DNA of 45,113 bases from a virus, in the UHGV virus genome UHGV-0116246, one strand, 5' to 3'. The translations under genes were made by a program, and so were the position numbers. The notes under the pieces were generated by a model, which was not told the DNA's origin, made no database searches, and worked only from the letters and a program-made list of their open reading frames with translations. Shown one piece after another: positions 9,332 to 33,982 of this stretch (positions are counted from its first letter, which is position 1; each line of letters begins with the position of its first letter).

Positions 9332-9334
9332 CTC

Positions 9335-9594: not shown

Positions 9595-9595
9595 C

Positions 9596-9611
9596 CTCGT
9601 TTTGTTACGAG
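9596..9611. promoter_or_regulatory. Palindrome CTCGT-TTTGTT-ACGAG, operator-like
   Basis: Same TCGTTTT...ACGA core as 8701-8722. Immediately after Cro-like stop. Confidence 0.35.
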
Positions 9612-10052
9612 TTTAATTTATCAGAAATCTTTGTAATTATTTTTAAAGCTTCAATTATATTTATTTTGTTAGTTACTTCGATATTTTCATTATTTGAATC
9701 ATTATTTTTATTCATTAAATCACATCCTCGAAATACAAATTTTTATCTATAACTAAACATAGATATATACATTATAAATTTTTTTGATAAAAAAATCAAG
9801 TGATAAGTTTGAATAAAAAAGTTGCGAATGGATTTAGAAACCTTGTGAAAATTAATTTGCTTTTTAAAAAATAAAACATAATTCACCTCACAAACAACAA
9901 GTTTTGACTTTTTGTTCTATTATAACATAAAAGGTATACGTTCATAGACATAAAAGTACAAGATAAGAGTAGAATAGCACAGAAAAAATACAAAAGCAAG
10001 TTAAAATAAAATATTTCATTTCACTTTATTAAGTTAAGTTAAAAATGTGTAG

Positions 10053-10140
10053 AATTGATTTTAAAGCCTTTCGAGAAGTTTAATGAGTAAAGTATAAAGA
10101 AAGGCTTCTAAATAAGTTTTACAGGTTAATGGTAAAGCGA
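10053..10140 (+). repeat. Copy 1 of duplicated ~90-nt element with 10-bp-stem hairpin (AAAGCCTTTC...GAAAGGCTT) plus conserved TAAATAAGTTTTACAGnTTAAT tail
   Basis: Near-identical second copy at 10497-10588. Each copy precedes a small gene. Confidence 0.6.
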
Positions 10141-10170
10141 GAATAAAAAATAAAAAAGGGGGTGGAGTGA

Positions 10171-10497
10171 GTGGAGAGTGTTAAGATACTGCTTGATGAG
10201 ATAGTAGTGTTAAAAAATGATTATATATTAACTCCTTACAATTTATTAGAAAATGCAAAGCTACAAAACTATAAATATGTTAAATATTATAAAAAAGATG
10301 GTTATTTAATATGTGAAATGCAATTTGATGTATTTAAGAAAGATTATGTATTTTATTATTACTTTGATAAAAATGATAAATTACACGAAATATACAAAGA
10401 AGAAAATGGAAAGATTGAAATATATTTTTCTAGGGAAGATGAAATTTTAAAAAAGACAAAAGAGCTGAAAGAGTTACTAGAAAATAGTAATCTATAA
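10171..10497 (+). CDS. Hypothetical protein
   Basis: 108 aa. GTG start after GGGGGTGGAG. Tyr/Lys-rich. Confidence 0.4.
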   Translation: MESVKILLDEIVVLKNDYILTPYNLLENAKLQNYKYVKYYKKDGYLICEMQFDVFKKDYVFYYYFDKNDKLHEIYKEENGKIEIYFSREDEILKKTKELKELLENSNL

Positions 10498-10588
10498 AAT
10501 TGATTTTAAAGCCTTTCAATAATTTAAATTAAGAAAGTTAGCGAAAGGCTTTTAAATAAGTTTTACAGTTAAATAGTAAAGCTTAAAT
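10497..10588 (+). repeat. Copy 2 of duplicated hairpin-containing element
   Basis: AAATTGATTTTAAAGCCTTTC...GAAAGGCTTTTAAATAAGTTTTACAGTTAAATAGTAAAGC. Confidence 0.6.
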
Positions 10589-10605
10589 AAAAAAAGGAGG
10601 TCGTT

Positions 10606-10716
10606 ATGTTTGGAAGGTTTGATTTTATATTTCAAGTTGATGACAAAAAATGGTATGGTTACGGCTTTGGTAGATATGCCAAAGGTATTCCAACATCATA
10701 TTTATTCAGAAGATAA
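10606..10716 (+). CDS. Tiny ORF (36 aa)
   Basis: MFGRFDFIFQVDDKKWYGYGFGRYAKGIPTSYLFRR with AAGGAGG RBS. Followed by a 13-bp-arm hairpin. Confidence 0.25.
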   Translation: MFGRFDFIFQVDDKKWYGYGFGRYAKGIPTSYLFRR

Positions 10717-10935
10717 AAAAGAAAATAGCAGCTCACACGAGTTGAATCTATTTTAAAAAAAATGGCTGTTTTTTAAAAATAGAATTAGAAAATAGCCATT
10801 TAAAATAAAAAAAATAATAATTTTTACTTTATATCTGTTCATCACTTCAAAGCCAAACATCTTTGTTGTGGTGGGCAGATACAAAATAAAAATAAGAGAG
10901 ATGTTTGGCAACACCTCTCAAAAAGGAGGTAATAA

Positions 10936-11865
10936 ATGAGTTTTTTAAAATTGAATACCATACCATACTATCCAGAATTAGGTAAGAAACTTGGTGGAAT
11001 AACACCAGCTATTTTAATGAGGCAGTTAGAATATTGGTTTGATAAAAATAAATACAAAAATTTCTATAAATTTTTAGAGCCTTGTGATAATGGATCATAC
11101 AAAGAAGGTGATTCTTGGATAGAAGAAATAGGAATAAGTAAAGCAGAATTCAGAAATGCTTTTTCTAAAATAGGAGTAGTTTATAAATCTAAAAAAGAAT
11201 TTAAAGAAGCAGAAGATAAATTTCAAGGGAAACCTTATTGTTCTTATATAGATAGAATGGAAAGAAGAACATATTATGTAAGAAACCATGAAAAAGTTAA
11301 AGAGATATTAAATGCTGTTACAAATGAAGGTGATGAATTTCCTAGAAATCAAGAAAGTGAATTTCTAGAAATCAAGAAAGTTGATTTCGGGAAATCAAGA
11401 AACTTAACTTCTAGAAATCAAGAAAGTGAATTTCCAATAACAGTAGATTACACAGTAGATTACCAGAAGAATACTACAGTAGAAAAAGATGATGATACTA
11501 AGTTAGATAAACTAAATAAGATAGAGGATATGCATGAGAAAGAAAAAGAGGTTCGTCCTTTGGACTCATCATCAATCGAATTTAAAAATGATTTACAAGA
11601 ACTTAAAGATATAGCTATTAAATCTACAGGAATAAATAAAATGCTAATAGATAATACTATGTTACCAAGTAAATACAGAGATATAAACATTAGGGAGTTG
11701 ATAAATAAAATAAAAGAATCTAAGTTTTTACTGGGAAAACTAGACACTAAACCTAATATAAATCATTTCTCAGTTAGAAATATGATAGATAGAATTATGG
11801 CAGATGCTTATAAAGATAAACAAGAAAAAAAAGCAGCATTACCACCAAGTAGGAGGGTTATTTAA
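10936..11865 (+). CDS. Replication initiator / replisome organiser (origin embedded in gene)
   Basis: 309 aa. Position before DnaB-like helicase. Contains 4 tandem 23-bp iterons in its middle. Confidence 0.55.
   Translation: MSFLKLNTIPYYPELGKKLGGITPAILMRQLEYWFDKNKYKNFYKFLEPCDNGSYKEGDSWIEEIGISKAEFRNAFSKIGVVYKSKKEFKEAEDKFQGKPYCSYIDRMERRTYYVRNHEKVKEILNAVTNEGDEFPRNQESEFLEIKKVDFGKSRNLTSRNQESEFPITVDYTVDYQKNTTVEKDDDTKLDKLNKIEDMHEKEKEVRPLDSSSIEFKNDLQELKDIAIKSTGINKMLIDNTMLPSKYRDINIRELINKIKESKFLLGKLDTKPNINHFSVRNMIDRIMADAYKDKQEKKAALPPSRRVI
11343..11434 (+). repeat. Iteron array: 4 x 23-bp direct repeats (TAGAAATCAAGAAAGTGAATTTC) = probable phage replication origin
   Basis: Exact head-to-tail repeats, 92 bp. 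Unit length is not a multiple of 3, so this is DNA-level conservation rather than protein conservation. Confidence 0.65.
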
Positions 11866-11867
11866 AA

Positions 11868-13082
11868 ATGGATTCAGAAATTAAATTAATATATTGCTTG
11901 TTACTTCTAGGACTTAATAAAAAAGATCAAGAAAAAATATTATCAGTTCCAGATAAGATGTTTAGCAAAGAAGCTGCTGAAGTAATAAAAAAATGCAAAT
12001 CAAGAATGATTAATAATGAACTGATAGATTATTCTATCATAAGCGAGAAAGAGAGAAAAATAGGTGAAAAAATATTTAATACAGAAGCTTTTGCTGAAAG
12101 AATAGATTTATATATTAAAGAGTTAAAACATAACTATATCAAAAGAAAATTGCAAGAGGCAGCTGTAATTGAAACAAATGAAGAATTACTGAATGAAATA
12201 TCAAGCATTAGAGAAGAAATGCTTGGAGAAAGCCAAACGGTAAAAAAACTAAGTCTTAAAAATGTAGTTGAAGAATACTACAAAAATATAGAAAATCCAC
12301 CTAAAAATCCATTAAAAACAGGTTGGAAAAAATTTGATGGATTAGCACAAATGGAACCAGAAGATTTAGTTGTAGTCGAAGGTAGACCAGGAATGGGGAA
12401 AACAGCATTTATATTATCACAAGCTTTATCATTGGCTAAAAATAGTAATAAAGGGATATTTTTCAGCTTAGAAATGTCAGAAAAACAAGTTATAAACAGA
12501 ATAATGGCTCAAATGTCTAGAATTTCTTTAGGATATTTGAAAAGCACAGAAGGTTTTGGAAAACTAAAAAATGAAGCACATGGAAGGCTTAATCTTGCAA
12601 GCACAGAACTTGCAAAACTTGGAGATAATCTAAATATCATAACTGGAAATTTTACAGTAAATAAAATACTTGAGATATGCAAAATAGAGAAAGAAAAGAA
12701 TGATTTGGATTATATAATAATTGATTATATGCAACTACTAGGGTCAAATGTAAAAGGTGGAAGATATGAACAAGTTACAGACATTTCAATATCTCTTAAA
12801 AAATTAGCTAAAGAATTGGGGATAGTAGTTATAGCATTAGCTCAATTGTCGAGGGAAGTTGAAAAGAGAGTAGATAAACATCCTTTACCATCGGACTTAA
12901 GAGATTCAGGCCAAATCGAGCAAGATGCCAGTATAATAATAGGTTTATACAGAGAGGCATATTATGTTGAAGATGCTGATCCTGAACTATTAGAAGTGTC
13001 TATTCTAAAGAATAGAAATGGAGGACTTGGAACTATATATTTTAATTTTAAAGGAGAAATTCAGGAGGTAAAAGAAAGATGA
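11868..13082 (+). CDS. DnaB-like replicative helicase (C-terminal RecA-like ATPase domain)
   Basis: Walker A GRPGMGKTAF, IIIDYMQLL, ALAQLSREVE, SDLRDSGQIEQDA motifs of DnaB C-terminal domain. Confidence 0.8.
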   Translation: MDSEIKLIYCLLLLGLNKKDQEKILSVPDKMFSKEAAEVIKKCKSRMINNELIDYSIISEKERKIGEKIFNTEAFAERIDLYIKELKHNYIKRKLQEAAVIETNEELLNEISSIREEMLGESQTVKKLSLKNVVEEYYKNIENPPKNPLKTGWKKFDGLAQMEPEDLVVVEGRPGMGKTAFILSQALSLAKNSNKGIFFSLEMSEKQVINRIMAQMSRISLGYLKSTEGFGKLKNEAHGRLNLASTELAKLGDNLNIITGNFTVNKILEICKIEKEKNDLDYIIIDYMQLLGSNVKGGRYEQVTDISISLKKLAKELGIVVIALAQLSREVEKRVDKHPLPSDLRDSGQIEQDASIIIGLYREAYYVEDADPELLEVSILKNRNGGLGTIYFNFKGEIQEVKER

Positions 13083-13327
13083 TTTATAAAACAAGAAAAG
13101 AAGAAGAGGACAGAATACTTAATTCTATCTTGTTGAAAAATATAAAAATTTTACCAGATGGGAAATACAAAGTTTTTTATGAATGTTGTTTAGGATATAA
13201 ACTTGTAGACTTAGAACAAACTTTACCTAGTAAGAAACATCTTAAAACATGGTTAAAAAACAATAAGATAAATATTAGAAAATATCCTGAAATATTAAAT
13301 AATTTAAAAAAAGAGTGCATAGCATAG
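13079..13327 (+). CDS. Hypothetical protein
   Basis: 82 aa. Overlaps helicase stop (coupled). Confidence 0.4.
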   Translation: MIYKTRKEEEDRILNSILLKNIKILPDGKYKVFYECCLGYKLVDLEQTLPSKKHLKTWLKNNKINIRKYPEILNNLKKECIA

Positions 13328-13336
13328 GAGGATAAA

Positions 13337-13639
13337 ATGACTAGAGATGAATTGAGAAAGTTTTACACATTTCTAAAAAAGGAAACAGGATTAAAGGGAG
13401 CACCTTCAAGGAACTTCGGGAGTAAGGAAGAGGTTTTGAAGGAGATTAGAAAAATAATAGAAAAGACTGAAAATACATATGCTATTGATTGGCAAATAAC
13501 ATCAAAAAAGAATAATGAACTTTTATATAAAAATACTGGATTGAAACTTGAAAATAACGACTTAAAACTGGAAATTAGTAAGTTAAAATCCGAACTGGAA
13601 GAATTGAAAAATAAAAAGTGGTGGCAGATATGGAAATAG
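13337..13639 (+). CDS. Hypothetical coiled-coil protein
   Basis: 100 aa. Confidence 0.4.
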   Translation: MTRDELRKFYTFLKKETGLKGAPSRNFGSKEEVLKEIRKIIEKTENTYAIDWQITSKKNNELLYKNTGLKLENNDLKLEISKLKSELEELKNKKWWQIWK

Positions 13640-13708
13640 CATTAATAATAGTGGCTGGTGCTTTTATAGCACTAGCTGCATTAGAAAGAAAGATAAGGGA
13701 GGGTATAA

Positions 13709-14056
13709 ATGACTAATTTATGGACAGAAACAGTAGCTAAATTAATATATAATGAAAAAACATTTGAAGATGTTATAGCGATATACGGAAATGATTTCCA
13801 AATAACTAAAGATAATTTTGAGAAAGTGGCAAAAAAAACTAATTATTATTCTGGATATGGTAGCCCAGCAGTTGCTACAGATTTAACGATATTAGGGAAA
13901 GGTTTTATAATGAAAAGAGAAGAGTATGACGGAGCTGAAAATTGGGAATATATAGTTTTACCAGATTTATCTAGCCTTAACAAAAAAACAGTAAATATTA
14001 AAGCTTTGGCAACAGATGGGATAGGATGGAAAAAACTGAAAGAATTGAATGAGTAG
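13709..14056 (+). CDS. Hypothetical protein
   Basis: 115 aa. GGGATAAATG RBS. Confidence 0.4.
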   Translation: MTNLWTETVAKLIYNEKTFEDVIAIYGNDFQITKDNFEKVAKKTNYYSGYGSPAVATDLTILGKGFIMKREEYDGAENWEYIVLPDLSSLNKKTVNIKALATDGIGWKKLKELNE

Positions 14057-14091
14057 ATTAGTAGAGTGGAAATAAAGATGAGGAGAGAGAT

Positions 14092-14295
14092 ATGGAAAGA
14101 AAAATAGGAGAGATATTTGAATATGAAGGGAAAAAGTATAAAGTAGTAGAAAATCTAAAATCATTAGCAGGTTGTGATAATTGTTGTTTTGGAGGTGAAA
14201 GTTGTTTTGATGTTATAGGTCGTAATGGTGGATATTGCATGAGACAGCTTAGAACAGATGGCAAAAGTATATATTTTGTAGAGGTGAAAGAATGA
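14092..14295 (+). CDS. Small Cys-rich protein (CDNCCF...C...C)
   Basis: 67 aa. Confidence 0.4.
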   Translation: MERKIGEIFEYEGKKYKVVENLKSLAGCDNCCFGGESCFDVIGRNGGYCMRQLRTDGKSIYFVEVKE

Positions 14296-14447
14296 AGAAA
14301 AAACAAAAACAAGCAGTTGAGATATTAGTAAAAACTCTTGCGATGATTTTTATAGCGGGTGCCTTAGGAATTTCATTATACATAATGGTTGATAGTTTCA
14401 AAGATATATTCAAAGACGTAGTTAAAATAGAGATAATTAAGAAGTAG
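14292..14447 (+). CDS. Small membrane protein (51 aa)
   Basis: MKKKQKQAVEILVKTLAMIFIAGALGISLYIMV... one TM. Confidence 0.3.
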   Translation: MKKKQKQAVEILVKTLAMIFIAGALGISLYIMVDSFKDIFKDVVKIEIIKK

Positions 14448-14455
14448 GGTGAAAA

Positions 14456-14791
14456 ATGAAAGAAAGTGAAATTCAATCAAGCATAATAGACTATTTACAG
14501 TTATTAGAAAATAAAGGGAAAATATTTATGCAGAGAATAAATAATACCGCAATATATGACCCTGTAGGCAAAAGATGGAGATCTTTAGCAAAAGGAACTA
14601 AAAAAGGTTTCCCAGATATTCTAGTACTAAAAAATGGTAAGTGTATAGGATTAGAAGTTAAAACAAATGTAGGGAAACAATCTAAAGAGCAAAAAGAAAT
14701 GGAAAAATTAATGAAGGAACATGGAGCTGATTACTATGTTGTAAGAAGCTTAGATGAAGTGATAGAGATAATAGGGATGGGGATGAGATGA
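14456..14791 (+). CDS. VRR-NUC domain nuclease (PD-(D/E)xK)
   Basis: GFPDILVL...GLEVK motif. Confidence 0.6.
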   Translation: MKESEIQSSIIDYLQLLENKGKIFMQRINNTAIYDPVGKRWRSLAKGTKKGFPDILVLKNGKCIGLEVKTNVGKQSKEQKEMEKLMKEHGADYYVVRSLDEVIEIIGMGMR

Positions 14792-15006
14792 GTAAATGTA
14801 TAGAACATGAAGGATTGAGATGTGATCTAATTTATTCAAGTTGGTATTCGTCTATATTCAAGATAGTAGAAAATCCAAAAAAACTTTCATTACCAGAAAT
14901 TGCTATTATCTTAAATAAGAAAACTGGTAATAAAGATATTTACTATTATATAGATTTAGGTAATGATAGAATTAAAATCGTTGATGATTGGTGGACCGGA
15001 ATATAG
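14788..15006 (+). CDS. Hypothetical protein
   Basis: 72 aa. Confidence 0.35.
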   Translation: MSKCIEHEGLRCDLIYSSWYSSIFKIVENPKKLSLPEIAIILNKKTGNKDIYYYIDLGNDRIKIVDDWWTGI

Positions 15007-15147
15007 GATGATGTAATAGAGATAGTGGGAGGTAGAATATGAGTTTTGAAACATTTGTGGTTATTGTATTCGGTGTAATACTTGGAAATGTAGCACAAGC
15101 AATATTTGCAATAAAAAGAAGTTTGAAAAATATAGAAAAGAAAATTT

Positions 15148-15333
15148 GTGAAAATAATGGAGGAAATAATGAAAAATAATATAGAAATTGATAAAGAGAT
15201 TATTATTCTTGCTGAAAGGATTTCTAAACTAGGAAAGAGAGATCAAAAGGCTTTAAAGTGTTTGCTTTATTATTTTGAAACTGTAAACAAGAAAGAAAAA
15301 AATGTTAAAAAACAGGAGGCGGAATATGAATAA
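15148..15333 (+). CDS. Hypothetical protein
   Basis: 61 aa. Confidence 0.35.
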   Translation: MKIMEEIMKNNIEIDKEIIILAERISKLGKRDQKALKCLLYYFETVNKKEKNVKKQEAEYE

Positions 15334-16117
15334 TTTAATAAAAATAGAGGAAAGAAAAAATATAGTTACAAGTTTAGAGTTGGTTGAACAGATTAATATT
15401 TTTAGAAGTCAGGAAGATAATAGATCAGAACTTCAACACAAAGATTTATTGAAAGTGATTAGAGATGAATTTGAAGATGAAATAGGTGAGGGAAAAATTT
15501 CGCTCGGGTCATATAAAGATAAGCAGAATCAAGAAAGACCTATGTTTGAACTAACATTTAATCAAGCAAGGCAAGTGTTAGTAAGAGAAAGTAAATTTGT
15601 AAGAAAACATATAATGTCTTACATTGAAGAATTAGAAAAACAATTAGGAAATATAATTTCCTATGAAGATAGATTAAAACTAGGTTTATTTTCAAATGAT
15701 CCTGATATAGTAGCTAGATCTCATAAAGCTTTATTGAAATTAGAGCTTAAACCTTTAAAAGAAGAATTGGAGTATAAAACAAAAGAAATAGAGTATAAAG
15801 AAGATGTTATTATTGGACTTACAGATAAAATAGAATTAATGGATATGAGGCAGATTCTTAATACAGTTGTAAGATATAAAGGAGCAGATTTTCAAGAAAG
15901 GTGGAGATTATTATATTTTGAATTTGAAAGAAAATATCATGTTGATATAAAAAGAAGAATAGAAAACTATAATAAAAATAATAAACCTAAACTGAAAAAT
16001 AAACTTGAATATATAGATAAAATAATGAACAAATTACCACAATTATATGAAATAGCATGTAAATTATTTGAAGGAGATATAGAGCAAATAATAGAAAATT
16101 ACAAAAAGGTATGTTAA
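15326..16117 (+). CDS. Rha-family phage regulatory protein (antirepressor-like)
   Basis: Start at MNNLIK after AGGAGG. VTSLELVEQINIFRSQEDNRSELQHKDLLKVIRDEF matches the Rha N-terminal signature. Confidence 0.55.
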   Translation: MNNLIKIEERKNIVTSLELVEQINIFRSQEDNRSELQHKDLLKVIRDEFEDEIGEGKISLGSYKDKQNQERPMFELTFNQARQVLVRESKFVRKHIMSYIEELEKQLGNIISYEDRLKLGLFSNDPDIVARSHKALLKLELKPLKEELEYKTKEIEYKEDVIIGLTDKIELMDMRQILNTVVRYKGADFQERWRLLYFEFERKYHVDIKRRIENYNKNNKPKLKNKLEYIDKIMNKLPQLYEIACKLFEGDIEQIIENYKKVC

Positions 16118-16129
16118 TAGGAGGAGCAT

Positions 16130-16288
16130 ATGGCAGATAATTCTAAATTAGATAGACTAATAAAAAAAATAGTAGATAGTGGAGAGTATAAAGATGGATG
16201 GCTTAAAATAAAAATAAATAATTCTGGAATTATAGTGGATGCCAAGTTCGAAAAAGCTATTCCACTTATAAAAAATCAAGAGAAATAA
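16130..16288 (+). CDS. Tiny ORF (52 aa)
   Basis: MADNSKLDRLIKKIVDSGEYKDGWLKIKINNSGIIVDAKFEKAIPLIKNQEK with GGAGGAGCATATG RBS. Confidence 0.3.
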   Translation: MADNSKLDRLIKKIVDSGEYKDGWLKIKINNSGIIVDAKFEKAIPLIKNQEK

Positions 16289-16290
16289 TA

Positions 16291-16319
16291 TTGCATAATA
16301 CCGCTAATAGTGGTATAAT
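16291..16319 (+). promoter_or_regulatory. Orphan consensus-like promoter TTGCAT-17-TATAAT
   Basis: TTGCATaataccgctaatagtggTATAATATAGAAAA. Shares the TATAATATAGAAAA tail with PR-like promoter. Confidence 0.5.
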
Positions 16320-16324
16320 ATAGA

Positions 16325-16430
16325 AAATATAATATATAATATAGAATTTCTGATTTGCGACCCTAAGAGGTGGATTAGATAAACTTTAGATGAAAAGTCT
16401 AAGGCTTATTTAGTCCACCTTTTTTATTTT
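16325..16430 (+). ncRNA. Candidate ~105-nt small RNA (promoter to terminator, no ORF)
   Basis: No ORF >7 codons. Ends in 12-bp-stem hairpin GGTGGATTAGAT...TTTAGTCCACC + TTTTTTATTTT. Confidence 0.35.
16369..16430 (+). terminator. Rho-independent terminator
   Basis: 12-bp stem with two G-U pairs, inner hairpin, T-run. Confidence 0.55.
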
Positions 16431-16656
16431 ATCTTGATTAAAACACATAACTCTGTACATGAAATAATAAAGGCTAAAGATAGCAGTATTGAAGTTATGT
16501 GTTTCAATGAGGGTATACCTCATGGTCGATGTCTACCCCATACTAATTTTTTTTCATATAAATGTCCTCCTTCCCTCACACGAGTGGATAAAAAGCCGCT
16601 AATAAAATTAATATAAACCAAAACTGTCACAAACATCAAATAAAAAAGGAGGAAAA

Positions 16657-17121
16657 ATGATATCAGAAAATTATATTCACAGTCATGATGAAACAGCTAA
16701 ATTGATAAAAATACCTGAACATTTGGGAGTATTAACAATAGATGGTTGCTTAAAAAATGGAGAAGTGCATATAGATGATGAGATGGTAGATATAATAAGC
16801 ATACTTTGGAATAAATATAAAATAGGAACTGTAGGTTGTTGTAAAGGCTATAAGGAAAATAAGACATTGAAAGATAATATAGCATGGATACAAATTGGTT
16901 CTGGTTGGAGTGAAAGAGAATATCCTAAATGGATAATAGATATTTTAATAAGAGAAACTATGAAAGCTATAAGTAAAGAAGCTAAATTTCCAATATTGCT
17001 ATATGATCCAAGATGTGTACCTTGTTACACTCCGAAAGGATACTTAACAGAAAAGCATTATGAGGAATTAGTAAAATCAGGGTATGAAATAGATATACCA
17101 ATAGAGGTTATAAAAATATAA
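16657..17121 (+). CDS. Hypothetical Cys-containing protein
   Basis: 154 aa. AAAAGGAGG RBS. GTVGCCKGY, CVPC motifs. Confidence 0.45.
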   Translation: MISENYIHSHDETAKLIKIPEHLGVLTIDGCLKNGEVHIDDEMVDIISILWNKYKIGTVGCCKGYKENKTLKDNIAWIQIGSGWSEREYPKWIIDILIRETMKAISKEAKFPILLYDPRCVPCYTPKGYLTEKHYEELVKSGYEIDIPIEVIKI

Positions 17122-17147
17122 AAAAGAAAAAGAGGGAATATCCCTCT
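17119..17147 (-). terminator. Hairpin AGAGGGAATATCCCTCT with flanking A/T runs; terminator for the minus-strand small gene (also caps + strand gene)
   Basis: Perfect 7-bp stem. T-run on minus strand. Confidence 0.5.
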
Positions 17148-17159
17148 TTCCATGAAGTT

Positions 17160-17366
17160 TTAGCCCTTGTGTGCTTTGTTACAACAATAGTAGCATCCAT
17201 CAGCATTGTATCCTAAATTTTTAGCAGCTTTTACAGCTTCTATCTCATTCAGATGATATCCAATAGAAGTTGTATGAAGTGCTTTTTTCCCATGAGTACA
17301 ATCAGTAGTATGAACTTCGTTATAACCTTTGTTATCTTTTGTTAGGTTAACTATATAATTAGGCAT
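17160..17366 (-). CDS. Small His/Cys-rich (metal-binding-like) protein; opposite-strand moron
   Basis: 68 aa, HTTDCTHGKKALHTT...DGCYYCCNKAHKG. Own RBS and terminator. The only minus-strand gene in the rightward region. Confidence 0.45.
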   Translation of the reverse strand: MPNYIVNLTKDNKGYNEVHTTDCTHGKKALHTTSIGYHLNEIEAVKAAKNLGYNADGCYYCCNKAHKG

Positions 17367-17500
17367 ATTTTTACCTCCTTTCTTTTATAAAATGTAGTAG
17401 CAACATATTATAACTTTTTGGAGAGAATATTTTAAATAAAAAATAGAAATAGTGGGTATTTTAACTACGTAAAGATAATTATTGAATGAATAATTTCCTG

Positions 17501-17531
17501 ATTAATACTCTTACATGATAAGAGTAGTAAT
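17501..17531. promoter_or_regulatory. Palindrome ATTAATACTCTTA-catga-TAAGAGTAgTAAT upstream of terminase genes
   Basis: 8-bp perfect arms extended to 13 with one mismatch. ~40 bp upstream of terS start. Confidence 0.3.
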
Positions 17532-17566
17532 GAGGTAAGGAGCAACAAGGAGGTGTCACAGATGGT

Positions 17567-18265
17567 GTGAAAGATCATGAATTAGCAAAAATAGATTATT
17601 TAGCTGGAATAAATATAAAAGAAATAGCAGCTAAATATAATGTAACAGAAGCAGCAGTAAGAAAATGGAAGTCACGCCATAAGTGGGGCGTCACAAAAGG
17701 AGTGTCACAGTGTGACAATGTGACAACTAACAAAAAGAACAAAATAGATTGGTTAAAGCTAGAAACTGAATATGTCACAGATATATCTGAAAAACCTGTC
17801 ACACTCAAAGCGTTAAGTGAAAAATATGATATCAGTTTCAATACCATTCAAGATTATTCAGCTGAAAAAGATTGGAGCAACAAAAGAAAGGAATATTACA
17901 TAAAAGTCACGGAAAAAACCAAAGAAAAATTATCTGATGAAATATCTGATGTAATGGCTAGTGTATTAAATAATATTAATACAGCCTTGCTACAAGCTAC
18001 AGAAGAGCTGAATATCTATGAAGAAGTTAATGGCTTTGGAAAGCTCGTTACTCACGAGACTGATACAGTGAGAGTGAATAAACTAGGAACATTAGTAAAA
18101 GCTTTAACTTCATTGCAAAAGATAGAGATAGAAAAGCAAAGGCTGGAGATTGAAAAGGAAAAAGTATATGGAACAGGAAATGAAGAAGGTAAGACTTCAG
18201 GCAGCATAGAAAAAGCTAAAAGTATTCTAATTAAACTAAGAGGTAGCAATGAAAGCGATAGATAA
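17567..18265 (+). CDS. terS: Terminase small subunit
   Basis: N-terminal HTH (EIAAKYNVTEAAVRKWKSRHKW). Immediately precedes large terminase with overlap. Confidence 0.5.
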   Translation: MKDHELAKIDYLAGINIKEIAAKYNVTEAAVRKWKSRHKWGVTKGVSQCDNVTTNKKNKIDWLKLETEYVTDISEKPVTLKALSEKYDISFNTIQDYSAEKDWSNKRKEYYIKVTEKTKEKLSDEISDVMASVLNNINTALLQATEELNIYEEVNGFGKLVTHETDTVRVNKLGTLVKALTSLQKIEIEKQRLEIEKEKVYGTGNEEGKTSGSIEKAKSILIKLRGSNESDR

Positions 18266-27391: not shown

Positions 27392-27803
27392 AATGTATGA
27401 TAAAGACAGGGATTTTATAACAATAGATGGAACTGATTTTTCTGGCATACTTGATGGTGATGGAGCTTTCACTACATCAAGATCAGGAGATTCTGTTATA
27501 ACAAGGGTTGATTCTTCTGGTAAACTGATAACTTTTAAAGCTTCAGACAATACAATAACAGGAAGTATAACAGTAAGACCAGACGCAAAAACAGCTCTAA
27601 AAAAACTAAGACAACTTATGAATACTTACAAGTCATTTAAAATAAGTAGAGATAATAGAAATCCAGGAGGAGAAAAAGAAACATATCTTAACTGCTATAT
27701 GGTTAATGATGGAGAAAATGGAAAAAATTCTTCTGGTGAAAAAAATGCAAGAACATTTAATTTTATATGTGAAAGTAAAATAGTTGAGGAGGGTGCATAT
27801 TAA
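27381..27803 (+). CDS. Tail tube protein
   Basis: 140 aa. Position between sheath-like and chaperone. Confidence 0.4.
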   Translation: MRHKMYDKDRDFITIDGTDFSGILDGDGAFTTSRSGDSVITRVDSSGKLITFKASDNTITGSITVRPDAKTALKKLRQLMNTYKSFKISRDNRNPGGEKETYLNCYMVNDGENGKNSSGEKNARTFNFICESKIVEEGAY

Positions 27804-28147
27804 TGAGCAAAGAAAATGAAGAAAAAATATTAGATTTTAAAGATTATACACCAATAAAAATAGAAGATGATTTAGATTATGATGAAGTTGTTCTGGAAGA
27901 TATAAAAGGAACTAAATTTAAATTTAAGTTTAGAAAGCCTAGTACTTCTGAACTTATAAGAGTAAGAAGAGAAGGAACTATATTAAAAGCTGATGATTCA
28001 GGTAAAAAGTTTACAATGTTTGCAATAGAAAAAATGTTTGATATAATTGCAAAAGATTTTGATTGTTTGCCAAAGAACATAACATCAGACATATTGACAG
28101 AGGAATCTGTAAATCTCCTTGTAGATAAATTTTGTAGCAGGGTTTAG
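27803..28147 (+). CDS. Tail assembly chaperone (gpG-like)
   Basis: 114 aa, acidic. Followed by +1 open frame (see next). Confidence 0.5.
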   Translation: MSKENEEKILDFKDYTPIKIEDDLDYDEVVLEDIKGTKFKFKFRKPSTSELIRVRREGTILKADDSGKKFTMFAIEKMFDIIAKDFDCLPKNITSDILTEESVNLLVDKFCSRV

Positions 28148-28322
28148 GTTAGATGAAAAGGGCTGTATAGATTATGAAAGTTATAAATTAACTGATTTTG
28201 AATATATAGCCCATATAATAGCCTATCATTTTCACCTGAACCCTTGGGAAGTTCTAACATGGAATTGTGAGAAGTTATTCAAAACTTACAGTGTTATTCC
28301 TAAAAATAGAACAAAAAAATAA
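28125..28322 (+). other. +1-frame extension (66 open codons) of tail chaperone; candidate programmed frameshift (gpG/GT-like)
   Basis: Frame opens at 28125 and lacks any start codon. Overlaps chaperone end. Candidate slip sites: AAA-TTT-T at 28127-28133 or GTT-TAG-G at the stop. Confidence 0.4.
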
Positions 28323-28338
28323 GAAAATCTGGACATTG

Positions 28339-28362
28339 GCAATTGAATACTGAGGGATAAAA
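28339..28362. repeat. Left 24-bp inverted repeat (GCAATTGAATACTGAGGGATAAAA) bounding accessory cassette
   Basis: Perfect reverse complement of 32109-32132. Confidence 0.8.
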
Positions 28363-28410
28363 TAAGGAAGTAAACTTATTCATTTTTATTATACAAAAGG
28401 AGTGATGTTA

Positions 28411-28989
28411 ATGAGATTAAACCCTGATTGTATAAGAGATATACTAATTAGTTTTAATGATAAAATTGATTTAAGTATACCTTATATAGTAAAAGAGATA
28501 AACTGTAAAGATATTTGTGATAAGTATTCTTCTAAAGAACTCTGTTATCATATGAAGCAATGTTTATATCATGATTTTCTTACTGGAACAGACAAAGGAA
28601 ATTGTATTGAAGTAAAAGGAATTTCTCTAGTAGGTAATGATTTTTTAGCTTATTTTTATGATGAAAAAGATTGGATAGAAATCAATAAAATTGCTGATAA
28701 AGTAGGATCACGTTCTATAGAAACTTTAAAACATATATTCATTCTTAGAAAGATAAAAGAAACAGAAATGAAGAATAGCAAAGGAGGAAAAAAGATGGAA
28801 TACCATTTTTATGATGAAAATTTAGAAAGAAAAGTAGTAACCAAAGAAGAAAGAATAGAACATTTAAAAAATTTATCTAAAAAATTAAGAGAGCAATTAT
28901 TTGAAAAACCAAAAACATTGCTCCCTGACGAAGTAGAATACTTTATTTCTATTTTTAAAGCCGAATTAGAGCATTTGTATAAGAATTAA
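28411..28989 (+). CDS. Hypothetical protein (first gene in cassette)
   Basis: 192 aa from MRLNPDCIRDILISF. AAAAGGAG RBS. Confidence 0.45.
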   Translation: MRLNPDCIRDILISFNDKIDLSIPYIVKEINCKDICDKYSSKELCYHMKQCLYHDFLTGTDKGNCIEVKGISLVGNDFLAYFYDEKDWIEINKIADKVGSRSIETLKHIFILRKIKETEMKNSKGGKKMEYHFYDENLERKVVTKEERIEHLKNLSKKLREQLFEKPKTLLPDEVEYFISIFKAELEHLYKN

Positions 28990-29008
28990 CTCAAATGGAG
29001 GTGGCAAG

Positions 29009-29167
29009 ATGCCAAGAATAAACTTTAAAGAAATAGATGAAATTTCAGAAGAAATAATGAAACTCTTAGAAGAAAGAGGAATTAGATATGAAGAATTTCA
29101 AATGATAGTTGAGTTGTTAGTATTAAAAACTAAACACAAAGAAGATTACACTGTAGATAGGTGGTAG
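29009..29167 (+). CDS. Tiny ORF (52 aa)
   Basis: MPRINFKEIDEISEEIMKLLEERGIRYEEFQMIVELLVLKTKHKEDYTVDRW. GGAGGTG RBS. Confidence 0.3.
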   Translation: MPRINFKEIDEISEEIMKLLEERGIRYEEFQMIVELLVLKTKHKEDYTVDRW

Positions 29168-29179
29168 CAAAACTACCAC

Positions 29180-29374
29180 TTATCCTGAATATTTTTCAAT
29201 ACTAGAAATGAAAAGCTTATTTAAAAGCAATCCTTTTCCAGTATTTTCTTCTACAAGAATGAAATTATTATCAATTTCTTTAATAACTTTACAATAACAA
29301 GGTTTGATACTGTTTTGTTTTTCAAAGTAATAGATAATGACTTTTTCATCTTTTAGAAATTCTACCAAGTTCAT
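29180..29374 (-). CDS. Hypothetical small protein
   Basis: 64 aa. GGAGG RBS. Confidence 0.4.
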   Translation of the reverse strand: MNLVEFLKDEKVIIYYFEKQNSIKPCYCKVIKEIDNNFILVEENTGKGLLLNKLFISSIEKYSG

Positions 29375-29529
29375 ATTTTACCTCCTTGTTATAAAAATGA
29401 GTCGCATTATTATTATAACTTTTTGGAGGGCTAAAATCAAACTTGTATGATTGACAAATTGAATAATATCTTTAAATAGAAGATTTAAAAAACACAACTT
29501 CCCTTTCTCCAAAAAAAATAAAAAAAAGC

Positions 29530-29558
29530 TTGACTTTTTGGGCGTACTAATTTAATAT
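29530..29558 (+). promoter_or_regulatory. Cassette-internal promoter TTGACT-17-TAATAT
   Basis: Upstream of RHH/Rha genes. Confidence 0.45.
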
Positions 29559-29588
29559 TAGTGTAAGGACAAAAAGTGAGGTGATGGA

Positions 29589-29771
29589 ATGAGTCCAAGA
29601 ACTGGTAGACCAAAAGCAGATAATACCAGAAATAAAAAATTAAATATTAGGTTAAGACAAGATGAGTTAGAACTAATTCAGGAATGTGCTAATAAACTTA
29701 ATAAAACTAGAACAGATACGATTATGGAAGGTATTAAATTGCTAAAGGTAGAACTAGACAATAAAAAATAG
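29589..29771 (+). CDS. Ribbon-helix-helix (CopG-like) regulator
   Basis: RTGRPKADNTRNKKLNIRLRQDELELIQECANKLNKTRTDTIMEGIKLL. Confidence 0.55.
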   Translation: MSPRTGRPKADNTRNKKLNIRLRQDELELIQECANKLNKTRTDTIMEGIKLLKVELDNKK

Positions 29772-29881
29772 AGTGTTAATCCACCGACCAAGAATTCTTA
29801 ACACTCTACACACCAATCAGAGATTGATAAATCTATTATATCATTTTTTGATTGGAATATCAATAATTTGGAGATGATATT

Positions 29882-30601
29882 ATGGATGAAATATTAAATT
29901 TAAATTTAGAGTTCGATGAAAATATAGGATATTTTGTTAGTAGTAGAACTTTAGCCGTTGGATTAGGGAAAGAACATAAACATGTGCTTGAAAGCCTTGA
30001 TAACATTAGAAAAAATAATAGAGCCGAAATTTCGACCCTATTAATACAAAGCGAATATAAGGCAAAAAATGGTAAGGTGAATAGAGAATATAAACTCACA
30101 AAAGATGGATTTACTTTATATATGTTCCATATACAAGGCTTTACAGAATTTAAAATGGCATATATAAATAGATTTAATGAAATGGAAAGTTTTATCAAAG
30201 AAGCTCATACCAAGTTAAAAGAAATAAAAATTGATAAAAAGTCTGATTGGTTAATTAATAGAGTAAGAACCAGATTAGACCAAGCTGAATATTTAGAAAA
30301 CCAAATAGCATATCTATTTGAGAAATTAAATGAAATATATTCTAAAGCAGAAATAGAACTAGAAACAAAAACAAAACAGGTAACAAGTAATTTCTGGGAT
30401 TTTAAAACTCCTAGTGATTATGACCCTGCAAAAGAGAAATTACCAGTACTTTATGAAGTTGAAATAGAAAAGGAAAATCTAGAAGAAATGGAAAAACTTG
30501 GAATAAATAAAGATGATGCTTTAAATGACATTGTTGAAAATAAAACTTTAGAAAAAACAGTAAAAATTTTAGGTCAACAAAAACTTACAACTAAAGAATA
30601 A
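29882..30601 (+). CDS. Rha-family phage regulatory protein (second copy, antirepressor-like)
   Basis: YFVSSRTLAVGLGKEHKHVLESLDNI ... YKLTKDGFTLYMFHIQGFTEFKMAYINRFNEME matches Rha family. Confidence 0.6.
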   Translation: MDEILNLNLEFDENIGYFVSSRTLAVGLGKEHKHVLESLDNIRKNNRAEISTLLIQSEYKAKNGKVNREYKLTKDGFTLYMFHIQGFTEFKMAYINRFNEMESFIKEAHTKLKEIKIDKKSDWLINRVRTRLDQAEYLENQIAYLFEKLNEIYSKAEIELETKTKQVTSNFWDFKTPSDYDPAKEKLPVLYEVEIEKENLEEMEKLGINKDDALNDIVENKTLEKTVKILGQQKLTTKE

Positions 30602-30714
30602 AATCATTCCCCTAGTAGAATTACTGGGGGAATACAATTAATAAAACGACTTGACTTTTTAAAATTGTGAAGTAATAATATATTAGACTAAAATTTAAAA
30701 AGGAGAGATTTTAT

Positions 30715-31131
30715 ATGAAAAAATTAATTTTATTTATGGCTTTAGCTTCCATTTTAACAGGGTGCAATCCTATGAAACCTGATGAAATTATATCAGAAAT
30801 CAGCAACCCATTTAAAGAATATAAGGTGATAGAACCTGAAGTGGTTAAAATGTTAGAAGAAAGTATATTAGAAACTGAAATTGAAAATAAAGGTTTAGAA
30901 AAGATAGAAACATCAGCTCATGTTATAAGTTTAAAGAAAACTGGTAATTATGCAACAGGAGAAGTAAAAATATTAGGAAAAATAACTCCTGAAAAATTAG
31001 AAAAGATGAATGAAAAAAGAACTGAAAGAAGAAAAATAAATGGTTTGGTTTCATATGAATGTATTTATGAATATAGTTATACTACTGGTAAAATGATGTG
31101 GACTAGTAATTTTAAATTAAAATATGAATAA
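30715..31131 (+). CDS. Lipoprotein (signal peptide + lipobox LTGC)
   Basis: MKKLILFMALASILTGC. Confidence 0.6.
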   Translation: MKKLILFMALASILTGCNPMKPDEIISEISNPFKEYKVIEPEVVKMLEESILETEIENKGLEKIETSAHVISLKKTGNYATGEVKILGKITPEKLEKMNEKRTERRKINGLVSYECIYEYSYTTGKMMWTSNFKLKYE

Positions 31132-31142
31132 GGAGAGAGCTT

Positions 31143-31472
31143 ATGAGATTTAAAGTTAAATCGGATTTAAGTATTAGTGAAATGTTAATGTACATATTAG
31201 CAATAGTATTCGGCTTTGGTATTTTAGGATTCTTTATTTTTGCTATAATAGAAGTCGGAATTGGACAGAGAATATCAGAATTGTTTTTAATATTTTATGT
31301 AATTGTATTAATAGCATTAACAATATCTTATATTATAAAATTGGCTCTTAATAGTATAACCTTTGGAAGTTTAAAAGAAGAAACTAATATAGAAAAACTC
31401 TTAAAAGAAGTATTAGAAGAACTTAGAGAACTAAAAAATAGTCAAAATAAGGAGAGTTCATATGGGAAATGA
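31143..31472 (+). CDS. Small membrane protein (2 TM + C-terminal coiled coil)
   Basis: Hydrophobic stretches MLMYILAIVFGFGILGFFIFAII and LFLIFYVIVLIALTISYII. Confidence 0.5.
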   Translation: MRFKVKSDLSISEMLMYILAIVFGFGILGFFIFAIIEVGIGQRISELFLIFYVIVLIALTISYIIKLALNSITFGSLKEETNIEKLLKEVLEELRELKNSQNKESSYGK

Positions 31473-32091
31473 AGAATACAACGTTCTTAAATATATTCTT
31501 GGTGGGTTCATTGTCATTTTACTTATTCTCGGAAAAATCGTAATGAATATGACAAAAGATAATAATTCAAAAGTTTCTAAAGTTAATACAGACCCAATGA
31601 ATAACTATCGAAATAATAAATTCTATGATCTCAAAAATGGTGGAATATTTGAAACTTATGTAAAGATTGGAAATTATTTTAGATATGATAAGATTAATCA
31701 AAAGATAATGCTTATATATAGCTATCACAGGGCAGATAAAAAGAAATATGCTGTATATAAATTAAGTGACATTTTAGAATTTGAATATATTGAAAATGGA
31801 ACTTCCCAAGTTAAAGGTGGTTTAGGTAGAGCTTTAGTTGGTGGAGCATTGTTTGGTGGAGTCGGTGCTATTGTAGGAGGAATTACTGGAACAAGGAATA
31901 CAAAAAAAGTTATTAACGAAATGAAGATAAAATTTGTAATTAAAGGCGATATACCAATTGTAGATTATCTTAATTTAAAAAATATATCATCTGTAAAAAG
32001 TGACAGCCAGCAATACAAATTATACATCAAACAACTCAATGAAATATTAGCGATATTAAATTATGCAGAACCTAAAGAAAATATAAAATAA
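31462..32091 (+). CDS. Membrane protein with N-terminal TM and glycine-zipper segment (GGLGRALVGGALFGGVGAIVGGITG)
   Basis: 209 aa. Overlaps upstream gene by 11 nt (coupled). Confidence 0.5.
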   Translation: MGNEEYNVLKYILGGFIVILLILGKIVMNMTKDNNSKVSKVNTDPMNNYRNNKFYDLKNGGIFETYVKIGNYFRYDKINQKIMLIYSYHRADKKKYAVYKLSDILEFEYIENGTSQVKGGLGRALVGGALFGGVGAIVGGITGTRNTKKVINEMKIKFVIKGDIPIVDYLNLKNISSVKSDSQQYKLYIKQLNEILAILNYAEPKENIK

Positions 32092-32108
32092 AAATAATAA
32101 ATATTTTG

Positions 32109-32132
32109 TTTTATCCCTCAGTATTCAATTGC
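32109..32132. repeat. Right 24-bp inverted repeat (TTTTATCCCTCAGTATTCAATTGC) bounding accessory cassette
   Basis: Perfect reverse complement of 28339-28362. Its distal part plus CTGGGGG forms a hairpin followed by ATTTTTTT (terminator-like, 32115-32146). Confidence 0.8.
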
Positions 32133-32173
32133 TGGGGGATTTTTTTATACAAAAATTCAAGAAAGGAGGAGTA

Positions 32174-33982
32174 ATGTCAGGTAAAATTGCAGGATTATTT
32201 TATGAGGTTGATTATAAAGTTAATCAACAAGGGCTTAAAAGAGCAGAAACTGGAATAAAGCAAATCGGAGATAATGCTAAAGGAACTGTTAATCAAATTG
32301 GATTTTTAGATCAAGGAATGGGTAGTTTAATCGGAAAAGCTGCTGGGATAGTAAGTGTTGGATACGCTTTTAAAAAAACAACAGATTTAATAGGACAATC
32401 AGTTGTAGCTTATACAGAGTTCGATGATTCTTTAAGAAAAACAGGTTCTAAATTAAATTTAACTGATGTAGAAATGAAAAGCTTAGCCAACTCAACAAGA
32501 AGTGTAGCATTAGAATTTAATTCTACAGGTAAAGCGGTTTCAGATGCTCAAGAGTATTTAGCATTAGCAGGTTATAATTTAAAAGAAATTCAAGCAGCAA
32601 GTCCAACAGTTGTAGCAGCCCAAAGGGCTACTGGTGAATCTATGCAGCTTGTATCAGATATAGCGACAGATACAGCATCTTCTTATGGTTATATGGCTAA
32701 TGAACTTAATTTTGTAACAGATAGAATGGTATATACTACAACAGCTTTTAATACTAACTTTGCTCAAATGGGTGAAGCTATGAAATATGTTGCTCCAGTT
32801 GCAAAAAATGCAGGTCTAGAGTTTGCTGATTTAAATGCTTACATAGGAGTTGCAGCTAACAGTGGTATAAAAGCAAGTCAAGCAGGGACAGCATTAAGAG
32901 CTATGTTTTTAAGAATACAAGCACCATCAAAAATGGCGGAAAAACAATTAAAAAAATACAATATTCAGTTATATGATAATAAAGGTAAATTCATTGGTGT
33001 AAATAATGCTTTAGCTTTAATGGAAAAGAAAATGGGAACAATGACAGAAAAACAAAAAGCATTTTTTATGCAACAAGTTTTTGGAACAGAAGCAATGTCT
33101 ACAGCTAATATTATATTTAAAGAAGGAATTGATAATATAATAGCTTATGGTGATGCAATAGACGGAGCGACAGGAAAAACAGAAGCTATGGCTAAGTATA
33201 TGGATGCTGGAATAGGTGGAATGTTACGTTCTCTTGATAGTCAAAAAGATGCTATAAAATTGACATTAGGTGAAGCATTTGAGCCTGTAGCCTATGAATT
33301 TGTTAGAATTTTAAGAGATGGAGCTAAAGATTTTAATGAAGTTTTAGAAAATTCAGAAGGGCTAAACAATATAATTAGAGTTGCAATGGGACTGACTGAA
33401 GTTATTGAAGGTATTAAATGGGTAGGACAAAATATTGATTATATAGCAGAAGGTTTAAATTTAGGACCTACATTTAAAGTTGGGAAAGGAATAGCTAATC
33501 TTTGGTGGAAAACTATGAATCCTTTAGGAAGTACTGCAAGTTTTTTGTCAAAAAGAGGAGAGAGAAGATTAATAGAACAAGGTATAGATAGAAGATGGTT
33601 GAGAGAAGATAAAGGTTTGTTGGATAAAAGTGCTACTGAAATGGACAAATATATTGCTGAAAACTTTAATCTGTTTGGAACTTTTTCAGAAACTCCTCTT
33701 AAAGAAAATGAAACTTATTTAAAGATAGGAGATCAAGAAACTAAAATAGATAAAGACCTTTTATCACAACTTACAGCAACAGAAAGAGCAACTTATTTAA
33801 ATCAAACAGAAACTCAAAAAGCTTTAAGATTTAATCCAACAATAACTTTAAATATAAATGGTATTACAAATTTGAATAATGAAGCTGTAGAAAATTTAAA
33901 AGAATCAGTTGCGGAGATTGTAAGAAAAGAATTTGAAAAACAATGGGCTTTAGAAAGAGTTCTAATTGGAGGTGATTATTGA
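32174..33982 (+). CDS. Tail tape measure protein (TP901-family core)
   Basis: Start at MSGKIAG with AAGGAGGAG RBS. ...ASQAGTALRAMFLRIQAPS... core motif, Ala/Gly-rich helical. Confidence 0.8.
   Translation: MSGKIAGLFYEVDYKVNQQGLKRAETGIKQIGDNAKGTVNQIGFLDQGMGSLIGKAAGIVSVGYAFKKTTDLIGQSVVAYTEFDDSLRKTGSKLNLTDVEMKSLANSTRSVALEFNSTGKAVSDAQEYLALAGYNLKEIQAASPTVVAAQRATGESMQLVSDIATDTASSYGYMANELNFVTDRMVYTTTAFNTNFAQMGEAMKYVAPVAKNAGLEFADLNAYIGVAANSGIKASQAGTALRAMFLRIQAPSKMAEKQLKKYNIQLYDNKGKFIGVNNALALMEKKMGTMTEKQKAFFMQQVFGTEAMSTANIIFKEGIDNIIAYGDAIDGATGKTEAMAKYMDAGIGGMLRSLDSQKDAIKLTLGEAFEPVAYEFVRILRDGAKDFNEVLENSEGLNNIIRVAMGLTEVIEGIKWVGQNIDYIAEGLNLGPTFKVGKGIANLWWKTMNPLGSTASFLSKRGERRLIEQGIDRRWLREDKGLLDKSATEMDKYIAENFNLFGTFSETPLKENETYLKIGDQETKIDKDLLSQLTATERATYLNQTETQKALRFNPTITLNINGITNLNNEAVENLKESVAEIVRKEFEKQWALERVLIGGDY

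Follow-up and report, generated by a model that had tools for sequence, protein, structure and literature searches.

A large share of the lysogenic-conversion and defence cargo of prophages is found in morons, and it is a standing question how those that bear a terminator can lie in an essential late operon and avoid cutting off the downstream genes in phages without a system of the lambda Q type. In lambdoid phages, late transcription passes such terminators by Q antitermination, and HK97 has this lambda-type system. Gene 15 of HK97, the first moron to be described (the Juhala/Hendrix definition), has its own promoter and terminator and lies between the tail chaperone (G/GT) and tape-measure genes (PMC3594210). 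The GenBank annotation of HK97 confirms this position. Here we describe a multi-gene island in the same slot of UHGV-0116246, a Fusobacterium ulcerans-type myovirus prophage sequence of 45,113 nucleotides (hereafter referred to in its entirety as the window). Products of the membrane or exclusion type are encoded at both loci, but HK97 has a single gene of about 250 bp, compared with eight genes over 3.8 kb here and a slot content of 1.9–5.5 kb. The HK97 moron has a terminator but no upstream complement of it, and the feature reported here is thus not generic to morons. The segment is a multi-gene moron island in the classical chaperone/tape-measure slot, so that both its kind and its position were known already. 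What is new is that its left boundary is the complement of its terminal terminator, and that the two co-vary across families of islands.

Several described systems resemble parts of this arrangement. In lambda sib, a local hairpin is completed by reading past tI, leading to RNase III decay of int RNA, and this needs N antitermination. As in sib, the fate of the RNA would here be set by the promoter of origin, and only read-through RNA has both halves of a terminator-overlapping structure; however, the halves are here separated by 2–5 kb, and the proposed effect of the upstream half is to keep the terminator from acting. The RNase III stems of 16S and 23S rRNA arise when complements separated by 1.5–3 kb of the same RNA pair into an extended duplex around a functional unit. 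No terminator is involved in those stems, which enclose a structured RNA, whereas the complements described here are linked to a terminator and surround translated mRNA, and cleavage of their predicted duplex is hypothetical. In attenuators of the trp and T-box type, too, the 5′ arm of the terminator has a complement upstream that competes with the 3′ arm, but there the competing strand lies within about 200 nucleotides (nt) and is made right before the terminator, and the choice rests with a ligand, a tRNA or the ribosome, whereas here it lies kilobases away and the proposed signal is the presence of the strand itself. The Acr/Aca operons of Mu-like Pseudomonas phages are promoter-bearing accessory operons with a small repressor within a structural operon, and the island likewise combines an accessory operon with promoter-like sites and a small repressor-like gene with late genes that include Mu-F-type head genes. 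No Acr or Aca homology was found in the island, and Acr/Aca loci are not known to have a terminator and its complement as their boundaries.

The two ends of the island

The eight non-structural genes of the island, all of which we recovered as open reading frames (ORFs), lie between two 24-nt arms that are exact reverse complements of each other, as the original prediction had stated (Table 1). With up to three mismatches allowed, the 24-mer occurs in these two copies only within the 45 kb, and none of 100 dinucleotide shuffles gave any match. The arms are 3.7 kb apart in the window (0.6–5.5 kb in relatives) and both lie within untranslated spacers. The 24-mer displays no dyad symmetry, its halves GCAATTGAATA and GAGGGATAAAA being unrelated. 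No exact match was found among 185,579 GTDB species-representative genomes, which speaks against a genome-wide REP-like motif; there was no match in plasmids, and every match in IMG/VR lies at this same locus. The original prediction could not assign the repeats to a known type of element. They can now be assigned: the 5′ half of the intrinsic terminator of the island constitutes the right arm, and its complement, within a conserved boundary module, constitutes the left. On the reading favoured below, the arms are not recombination or transposition termini.

The hairpin that had been noted around the right repeat was recovered at 32113–32140, followed by T7. Its stem contains five G–C pairs, its loop is UUCAAU and its 5′ flank is UUUU; the predicted free energy is −17 to −19 kcal/mol (z = −5.25). 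In a scan of the 24-kb late/structural operon, from about 16 kb to 41.4 kb, this is the only strong plus-strand terminator, and the tape-measure gene and all genes beyond it can therefore be expressed only by late transcription that crosses this terminator. The gap between the T tract and the tape-measure ATG is 26 nt, ribosome-binding site (RBS) included, which leaves no room for a promoter.

The left module starts directly after the stop codon of the +1-frame chaperone extension. This extension ends before the left arm, as predicted, although the distance is 16 nt and not 17. The module reads AAGAAAATC-TGGACATTG-GCAATTGAATA-CTGAGGGAT-AAAA and is the reverse complement of the whole terminator, including the U tract, except that the outer stem arm CCCCCAG is replaced by GGACATTGG. 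Because of this replacement, the module contains no hairpin on either strand, and no significant folding is predicted for the left region (z = 0.57). Beyond the 24-mer, complementarity continues as an interrupted duplex in which GAAAATC, 5′ of the left arm, is matched by GATTTTT of the terminator tail. It thus spans the 5′ flank, the 5′ arm, the loop and the U tract, and excludes the core of the 3′ arm. The predicted duplex comprises 29 contiguous pairs and an outer helix around an asymmetric internal loop. Predicted energies are −48 kcal/mol for the full duplex, −35 kcal/mol for the nascent RNA before the 3′ arm and −17 kcal/mol for the terminator hairpin. The left strand is complementary at 24 of 24 positions to the 5′ flank, 5′ arm and loop of the terminator, and this pairing and the hairpin are mutually exclusive, as in attenuators. 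In silico, the ends also form a duplex of at least 20 bp flanking a kilobase-sized unit in one transcript, as RNase III stems do.

Searches for a known counterpart of the left module were negative: the window contains no Rfam match at gathering score and the module itself gave noise only, BLAST of the module against isolated phages returned nothing, and literature matches to its motif strings were primers and unrelated text. Several other functions for it were considered and rejected. Conservation of the left arm as a promoter does not fit, since the spacing of the TTGGCA and TAAAAT elements is not kept in the related modules of L012 (19 nt) and L082 (related loci are given L numbers), varies between families, and in L082 and L051 the predicted promoters are found 3′ of the module. 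A minus-strand terminator is ruled against by the absence of a hairpin and a z value of about 0. Readings of the motif GGACATTGGNAATTGAATA within the module as a sigma-54, sigma-H or integration host factor (IHF) site, a RAT sequence or a CRISPR handle were dropped for wrong spacing or absence of a stem.

The 19-nt motif GGACATTGGNAATTGAATA (28331–28349 in the window; also loci L039–L071) was found in 35 IMG/VR contigs in about ten sequence contexts. It usually begins at most 15 nt after an upstream stop codon and often precedes small cassettes (HicAB, ribbon-helix-helix (RHH) genes). As the motif was itself the search query, its apparent invariance is partly a matter of ascertainment, and two GC-rich contexts may be due to chance. 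In plasmid-like Fusobacterium-type phage contigs encoding ParA, GGACATTGGNAATTGAATA is followed by a different sequence of 22–24 nt, TTTACAGTATTTTATAGAGGAGG, the reverse complement of which follows after 240–820 nt; a variable gene on the minus strand lies between the two copies, each of which includes an RBS (L039 9796–10630, L055 1954–2760, and also L045, L049, L050, L054, L056, L061, L064 and L069). These loci are a second case of a motif followed by a variable arm and its distant complement.

Insertion site and cargo in relatives

The window, with a GC content of 27–33%, has genes for a large serine integrase, a Rad52-like annealing protein, a DnaB-type helicase, a terminase, a Mu-F-type head module and a contractile tail. 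Close homologues of its chaperone carry a Fusobacterium ulcerans annotation. The chaperone ORF has no Pfam match, and a search of genome contigs with the chaperone recovered no relative; its homologues in relatives are always found immediately 5′ of the tape-measure gene. About 25 closer relatives, F. ulcerans-type prophages of which 14 are complete, were collected from IMG/VR, ENA and Logan assemblies.

Alignment of relatives, the check originally proposed, revealed empty sites. In L013–L019, with chaperones about 50% identical to that of the window, the same chaperone extension abuts the tape-measure gene, its ORF running straight into the RBS and start codon of the latter without repeat or terminator, and no strong terminator was found in 15–16 kb of these empty-site relatives. 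By contrast, all of the roughly 25 closer relatives hold an island at this site. The notion of a self-contained moron or accessory island between intact tail genes is supported by the empty sites, by a GC content of about 26% against 32–33%, by promoter-like sites, by the terminal terminator and by the toxin–antitoxin, cI/Cro-like and defence-type genes that relatives carry in the slot.

Among the 14 complete relatives, the arms are the same and the content is strongly mosaic, with at least ten architectures and arm-to-arm distances of 1.9–5.5 kb. Divergence starts just inside each arm (in L083, within the left arm). The left module is kept in 24 related loci, whereas the sequence inside changes; a fixed set of eight genes without repeats, which would have spoken against an inserted cassette, is therefore not what relatives display. 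Cargo in the slot includes DUF2513 genes (in either orientation), SAP-domain, Rha, lipoprotein, membrane-protein and ParE/DUF6290 genes, and in L020 the slot holds one gene only, for a 101-aa membrane protein. Several islands among L023–L030 (for example, L023 8845–10722) contain, in the middle of the tail operon, a divergent pair of helix-turn-helix (HTH) genes, cI-like (212 aa, minus strand) and Cro-like (68 aa), together with KilA-N; the pair looks like a second immunity-type switch. Toxin–antitoxin pairs (DUF6290/ParE, HicA/HicB) recur directly 3′ of the left module (L083 8642–9138, L082 7575–8282, L040 and L065). The island of L079 (343–1752, minus strand of the locus) opens with a gene for a 469-aa ABC-type ATPase, followed by a second gene. 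The ATPase matches those of defence systems (HEC-02A, 2e-28; PD-T4-4_A; AriA; PtuA), which makes the gene pair a candidate two-gene anti-phage system.

Co-variation of the ends across island families

Islands with end modules of the same design occur elsewhere. L012, a phage of the empty-site group, carries a different island (RHH, 131 aa, Bro-N/ANT and 43 aa) between two head genes, for which L013 provides the empty site. A small island that includes an RHH gene separates the sheath and tube genes in the L051 group, and in L082, which belongs to another lineage, an island with HicAB and a lipoprotein gene lies between the chaperone and tape-measure genes. All three share the design of the left module and end in a terminator with a CCUCAG/CUGGGG stem. 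Together with the window type (chaperone/tape measure), these form three families at three sites, with L012 (between head genes) and L051 (sheath/tube) in one and L082 in another, and their arm sequences differ. A scan of metagenomes for further families returned these three only.

The ends of each family match each other. Between GAATA and CTGAGG, the left arm has insertions of 0, 4 or 2 nt depending on the family, and matching insertions are found in the terminator loop. Co-variation was scored by pairwise local alignment; MAFFT of the joined arms misaligned the insertions. The left module of the window scores 49 against its own terminator and at most 27 against others, that of L082 scores 34 and at most 28, respectively, and that of L012 scores 31 against its own terminator, 30 against the same-type terminator of L051 and at most 26 outside its own type. 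The cognate duplexes outscore all 300 shuffles in three of four cases (window, L012 and L082), with p = 0.017 for L051. L012 and L082 likewise have predicted duplexes of 17 bp or more. Of the four fixed differences that separate cognate arms, three are compatible with G–U pairing on the plus strand and none on the minus strand, a sample too small for significance. The left module precedes the predicted promoters of the island; in L082 it is directly followed by a TTGACT-17-TATAAT promoter, and the order is the same in L051.

Terminators of the islands share the stem CCUCAG/CUG(G/A)GG and have quite different loops (window 32113–32140; L082 8288–8316 and 9228–9256; L020 8885–8908; L065; and, internally, L024 and L026). 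The other terminators of the window (41484, 43729, 44567 and those on the minus strand) do not have this stem. The shared stem could be due to common descent or to a shared constraint.

Only the L012 insertion could be mapped against an empty site, that of L013, and its junction lies about 100 nt outside the left arm. The insert is flanked by the 8-nt sequence TTTAAAAT (2768–2775 and 4733–4740), and the empty site of L013 (about 4727–4745) reads TTGAAAAAT. The flanks could represent a target duplication or mere microhomology in AT-rich DNA.

A proposed role for the ends in late transcription

We infer from this organization that the arms pair as RNA and thereby affect termination. Transcripts from island promoters, as in the lysogen, would lack the left arm and stop at the terminator, keeping the tape-measure and baseplate genes silent. 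The left module is upstream of every predicted island promoter, and therefore only transcripts entering from the late operon would contain it. Late transcripts entering from the chaperone gene would carry the left arm, which would pair over 2–5 kb with the 5′ flank, 5′ arm and loop of the terminator; this long-range pairing would compete with hairpin formation and result in read-through, and the same long duplex may be a processing site for RNase III. A moron island in the classical slot with a left end that gives late read-through in this manner is the account we favour, as the simplest that takes in all of these observations, tentatively and at somewhat less than even confidence. A broader version, in which the 3′ terminator and its upstream complement are a portable pair of ends that makes termination depend on the origin of the transcript, would explain the shared CCUCAG/CUGGGG stem, but we regard it as doubtful.

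A number of points weigh against read-through by pairing. A local hairpin of 11 bp should form faster than a duplex between arms 2–5.5 kb apart, and the left arm would be superfluous if the phage had a processive antitermination factor; none was found, although one may still be present. The predicted accessibility of the left arm is average and uninformative either way. The upstream coding region is nearly as conserved as the left arm, and close relatives are too alike for the invariance of the arm to prove selection. Pairing does not account for the conservation of GGACATTGG. Among close relatives, three loop variants in the right arm and one variant in the left arm (L083) are uncompensated. 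Complementarity amounts to only 7–9 nt in L065 and in the one-gene island of L020, and the internal plus-strand terminators in the islands of L082, L024 and L026 match the left module over only 6–7 nt.

The ends may instead act at the level of DNA or of RNA stability. The arms could be short boundary 'linker' homologies for the exchange of cassettes among co-infecting phages and prophages through relaxed homologous recombination, for example by the Rad52-like protein of the phage, their inversion being a by-product of a sequence derived from the terminator. Mosaic content between invariant ends, divergence within a few nt inside each arm, the same end modules in different phage lineages and sites, the Rad52/22-family gene of the window and the presence of GGACATTGGNAATTGAATA in several contexts all point in this direction. 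However, exchange gives no account of ends that are reverse complements or of cognate co-variation with matching insertions in three families, and the chaperone and tape-measure genes already provide long homology, so that we consider it rather unlikely as the explanation of the arms; the two roles are not mutually exclusive. Less probable still is a long-range RNase III stem, an interrupted duplex of about 40 bp that would excise the island RNA and separate the late mRNAs, acting on stability and expression and not on termination. Duplexes of the predicted shape are typical of RNase III sites in phages and rRNA, and the 29 contiguous pairs with an outer helix around an asymmetric internal loop, the untranslated position of the arms and the duplexes of at least 17 bp in L012 and L082 would suit such a stem. 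Yet polymerase must first pass the terminator, which means that read-through would still be needed, and the 7–9-nt matches of L065 and L020 are too short.

Explanations that rely on a protein recognizing the arms fare worse. The original prediction had considered a mobile cassette, and homologous end modules at three genomic sites, together with TTTAAAAT on both sides of the L012 insert, would suit a non-autonomous element with terminal inverted repeats served by a transposase in trans. This is very unlikely: the L012 junction lies well outside the left arm and no duplication flanks the island of the window, copies of the 24-mer elsewhere are lacking in the representative genomes and in IMG/VR, no island contains a transposase, the content changes while the ends are fixed, and the right arm is built into a terminator, with a within-arm spacing that varies by family and is unsuited to a protein-binding end. 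Slightly less probable again is a pair of operators for one DNA-binding protein of the island or backbone, which would loop or roadblock the island. Islands often encode RHH, HTH or DUF2513 proteins and the left arm overlaps a promoter-like site, but no protein is common to all islands (L020 has a membrane protein only and L079 starts with an ATPase), the distance between conserved blocks within the arm varies by 0–6 nt among families, and the right arm lacks GGACATTGG, the most conserved block. An invertible segment, also raised originally, is the least credible of all. Like the Mu G, P1 C and Salmonella hin (H) segments, the island has short inverted repeats (here perfect, of 24 bp) around a few kilobases in or near phage tail genes, and the window encodes a serine recombinase. 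That gene, however, encodes a 461-aa large serine integrase 27 kb away, and a scan of the left and early region revealed no other recombinase; no small serine invertase was found in or next to the island, the genes past the tape-measure gene lying outside the scan. The arms have no dyad-symmetric half-sites, and the cargo consists of accessory genes and not tail fibres. All 14 complete assemblies, from independent samples, have the same interior orientation, with only the DUF2513 gene of L008 reversed, on its own. Inversion would moreover turn the terminator and genes against the late operon. An integron gene cassette was also rejected: no tyrosine recombinase was found among the scanned proteins (those of the island, the chaperone, the tape-measure protein and the ORFs from 269 to 18265), the genes have promoter-like sites of their own, and the arms are kilobases apart.

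If late read-through by pairing of the arms is correct, the ends would provide a simple, protein-independent solution in cis by which genes with promoters and terminators could be inserted in an essential operon without causing polarity. They would also be a rare case of kilobase-range RNA pairing that controls bacterial transcription, and a ready design for insulated insertion cassettes. Irrespective of mechanism, the locus is a conserved and easily recognized hotspot in gut and oral Fusobacterium prophages, and its fixed ends make it convenient for mining accessory and anti-phage genes.

Genes and promoters inside the island

Coordinates of the island, its ends and the backbone genes that bear on it are given in Table 1. 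The GC content is 25–28% (about 26%) in the island and 32–34% in the tail genes on either side. In BLAST searches of phages and plasmids, the island matched Rha and SHOCT gene fragments only; the Rha gene matches those of Fusobacterium phages. The N terminus of the lipoprotein weakly resembles the signal region of the Cor lipoprotein of phrog_1119. PADLOC gave no significant match for the eight island proteins of the window.

Table 1 Features of the island and its surroundings in the window (aa, amino acids)
Feature	Position	Strand	Details
Large serine integrase	269-1654		461 aa
Rad52/22-family protein	5953-6441		
Tail assembly chaperone ORF, upstream backbone gene	27803..28147	+	114 aa; located after sheath-like 361-aa and tube-like 140-aa ORFs
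+1-frame chaperone extension, GT-like product	28125..28322	+	Open frame, translation; TAA 28320-28322
Left boundary module	28323..28372	+	GAAAATC (terminator-tail complement), motif GGACATTGGCAATTGAATA (28331-28349), left arm
Promoter-like TTGGCA-16-TAAAAT	28336..28363	+	Overlaps left arm; consensus match only, 10/12
Left inverted-repeat arm	28339..28362	+	GCAATTGAATACTGAGGGATAAAA; complement of terminator 5′ flank, 5′ arm and loop
DUF2513 protein	28411..28989	+	192 aa; PF10711 7e-11, phrog_585
52-aa ORF	29009..29167	+	No family match
64-aa ORF	29180..29374	-	No family match
Promoter-like TTGACT-17-TAATAT	29530..29558	+	5′ of RHH gene; consensus scan
RHH-type regulator	29589..29771	+	60 aa; phrog_876 transcriptional repressor 4.5e-13; weak NikA/TacA Pfam matches
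Rha-family regulator, antirepressor-like	29882..30601	+	239 aa; PF09669 4.7e-18, phrog_518
Promoter-like TTGACT-17-AATAAT	30651..30679	+	5′ of lipoprotein gene; consensus match
Lipoprotein	30715..31131	+	138 aa; signal peptide ends LTGC; resembles superinfection-exclusion protein
Membrane protein	31143..31472	+	109 aa
phrog_888 protein	31462..32091	+	209 aa; homologues carry PH_gly_zipper domain
Right inverted-repeat arm	32109..32132	-	4-nt 5′ flank, 5′ stem arm, loop and 3 nt of 3′ arm of terminator
Intrinsic terminator	32113..32147	+	11-bp stem AUCCCUCAGUA / UGCUGGGGGAU, 6-nt loop, U7
Tape-measure protein, downstream backbone gene	32174..33982	+	602 aa; PF10145 1.5e-39, phrog_1533 2.6e-76

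Three promoter-like sites start at 28336, 29530 and 30651. The second of these, claimed originally, was recovered in a consensus scan with 9 of 12 matches. The total of such matches in the region equals the shuffle expectation; homologous promoter–gene units recur in relatives, and the unit of promoter and lipoprotein gene is present in L082.

Only residues 2–99 of the DUF2513 protein match the domain. Some relatives have one ORF of 192 aa, as in the window, and others have two genes, of 120 aa and 60 aa (L031 8612–9153), and the ORF of the window may thus be a fusion. Within the Rha gene, a palindrome with a perfect stem, TAATAGAGCCGAAATTTCGGCTCTATTA (30016–30043), scores as a minus-strand terminator. 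The spacer between the RHH and Rha genes contains, again on the minus strand, the best sigma-70-like match of the region (TTGATA-17-TATAAT with TG, 11/12, 29863–29835), and about 40 nt past this match there is a minus-strand terminator hairpin (around 29799–29762, −14 kcal/mol). As judged from their positions, this promoter and terminator (29760–29863) would yield a small RNA of about 60–70 nt.

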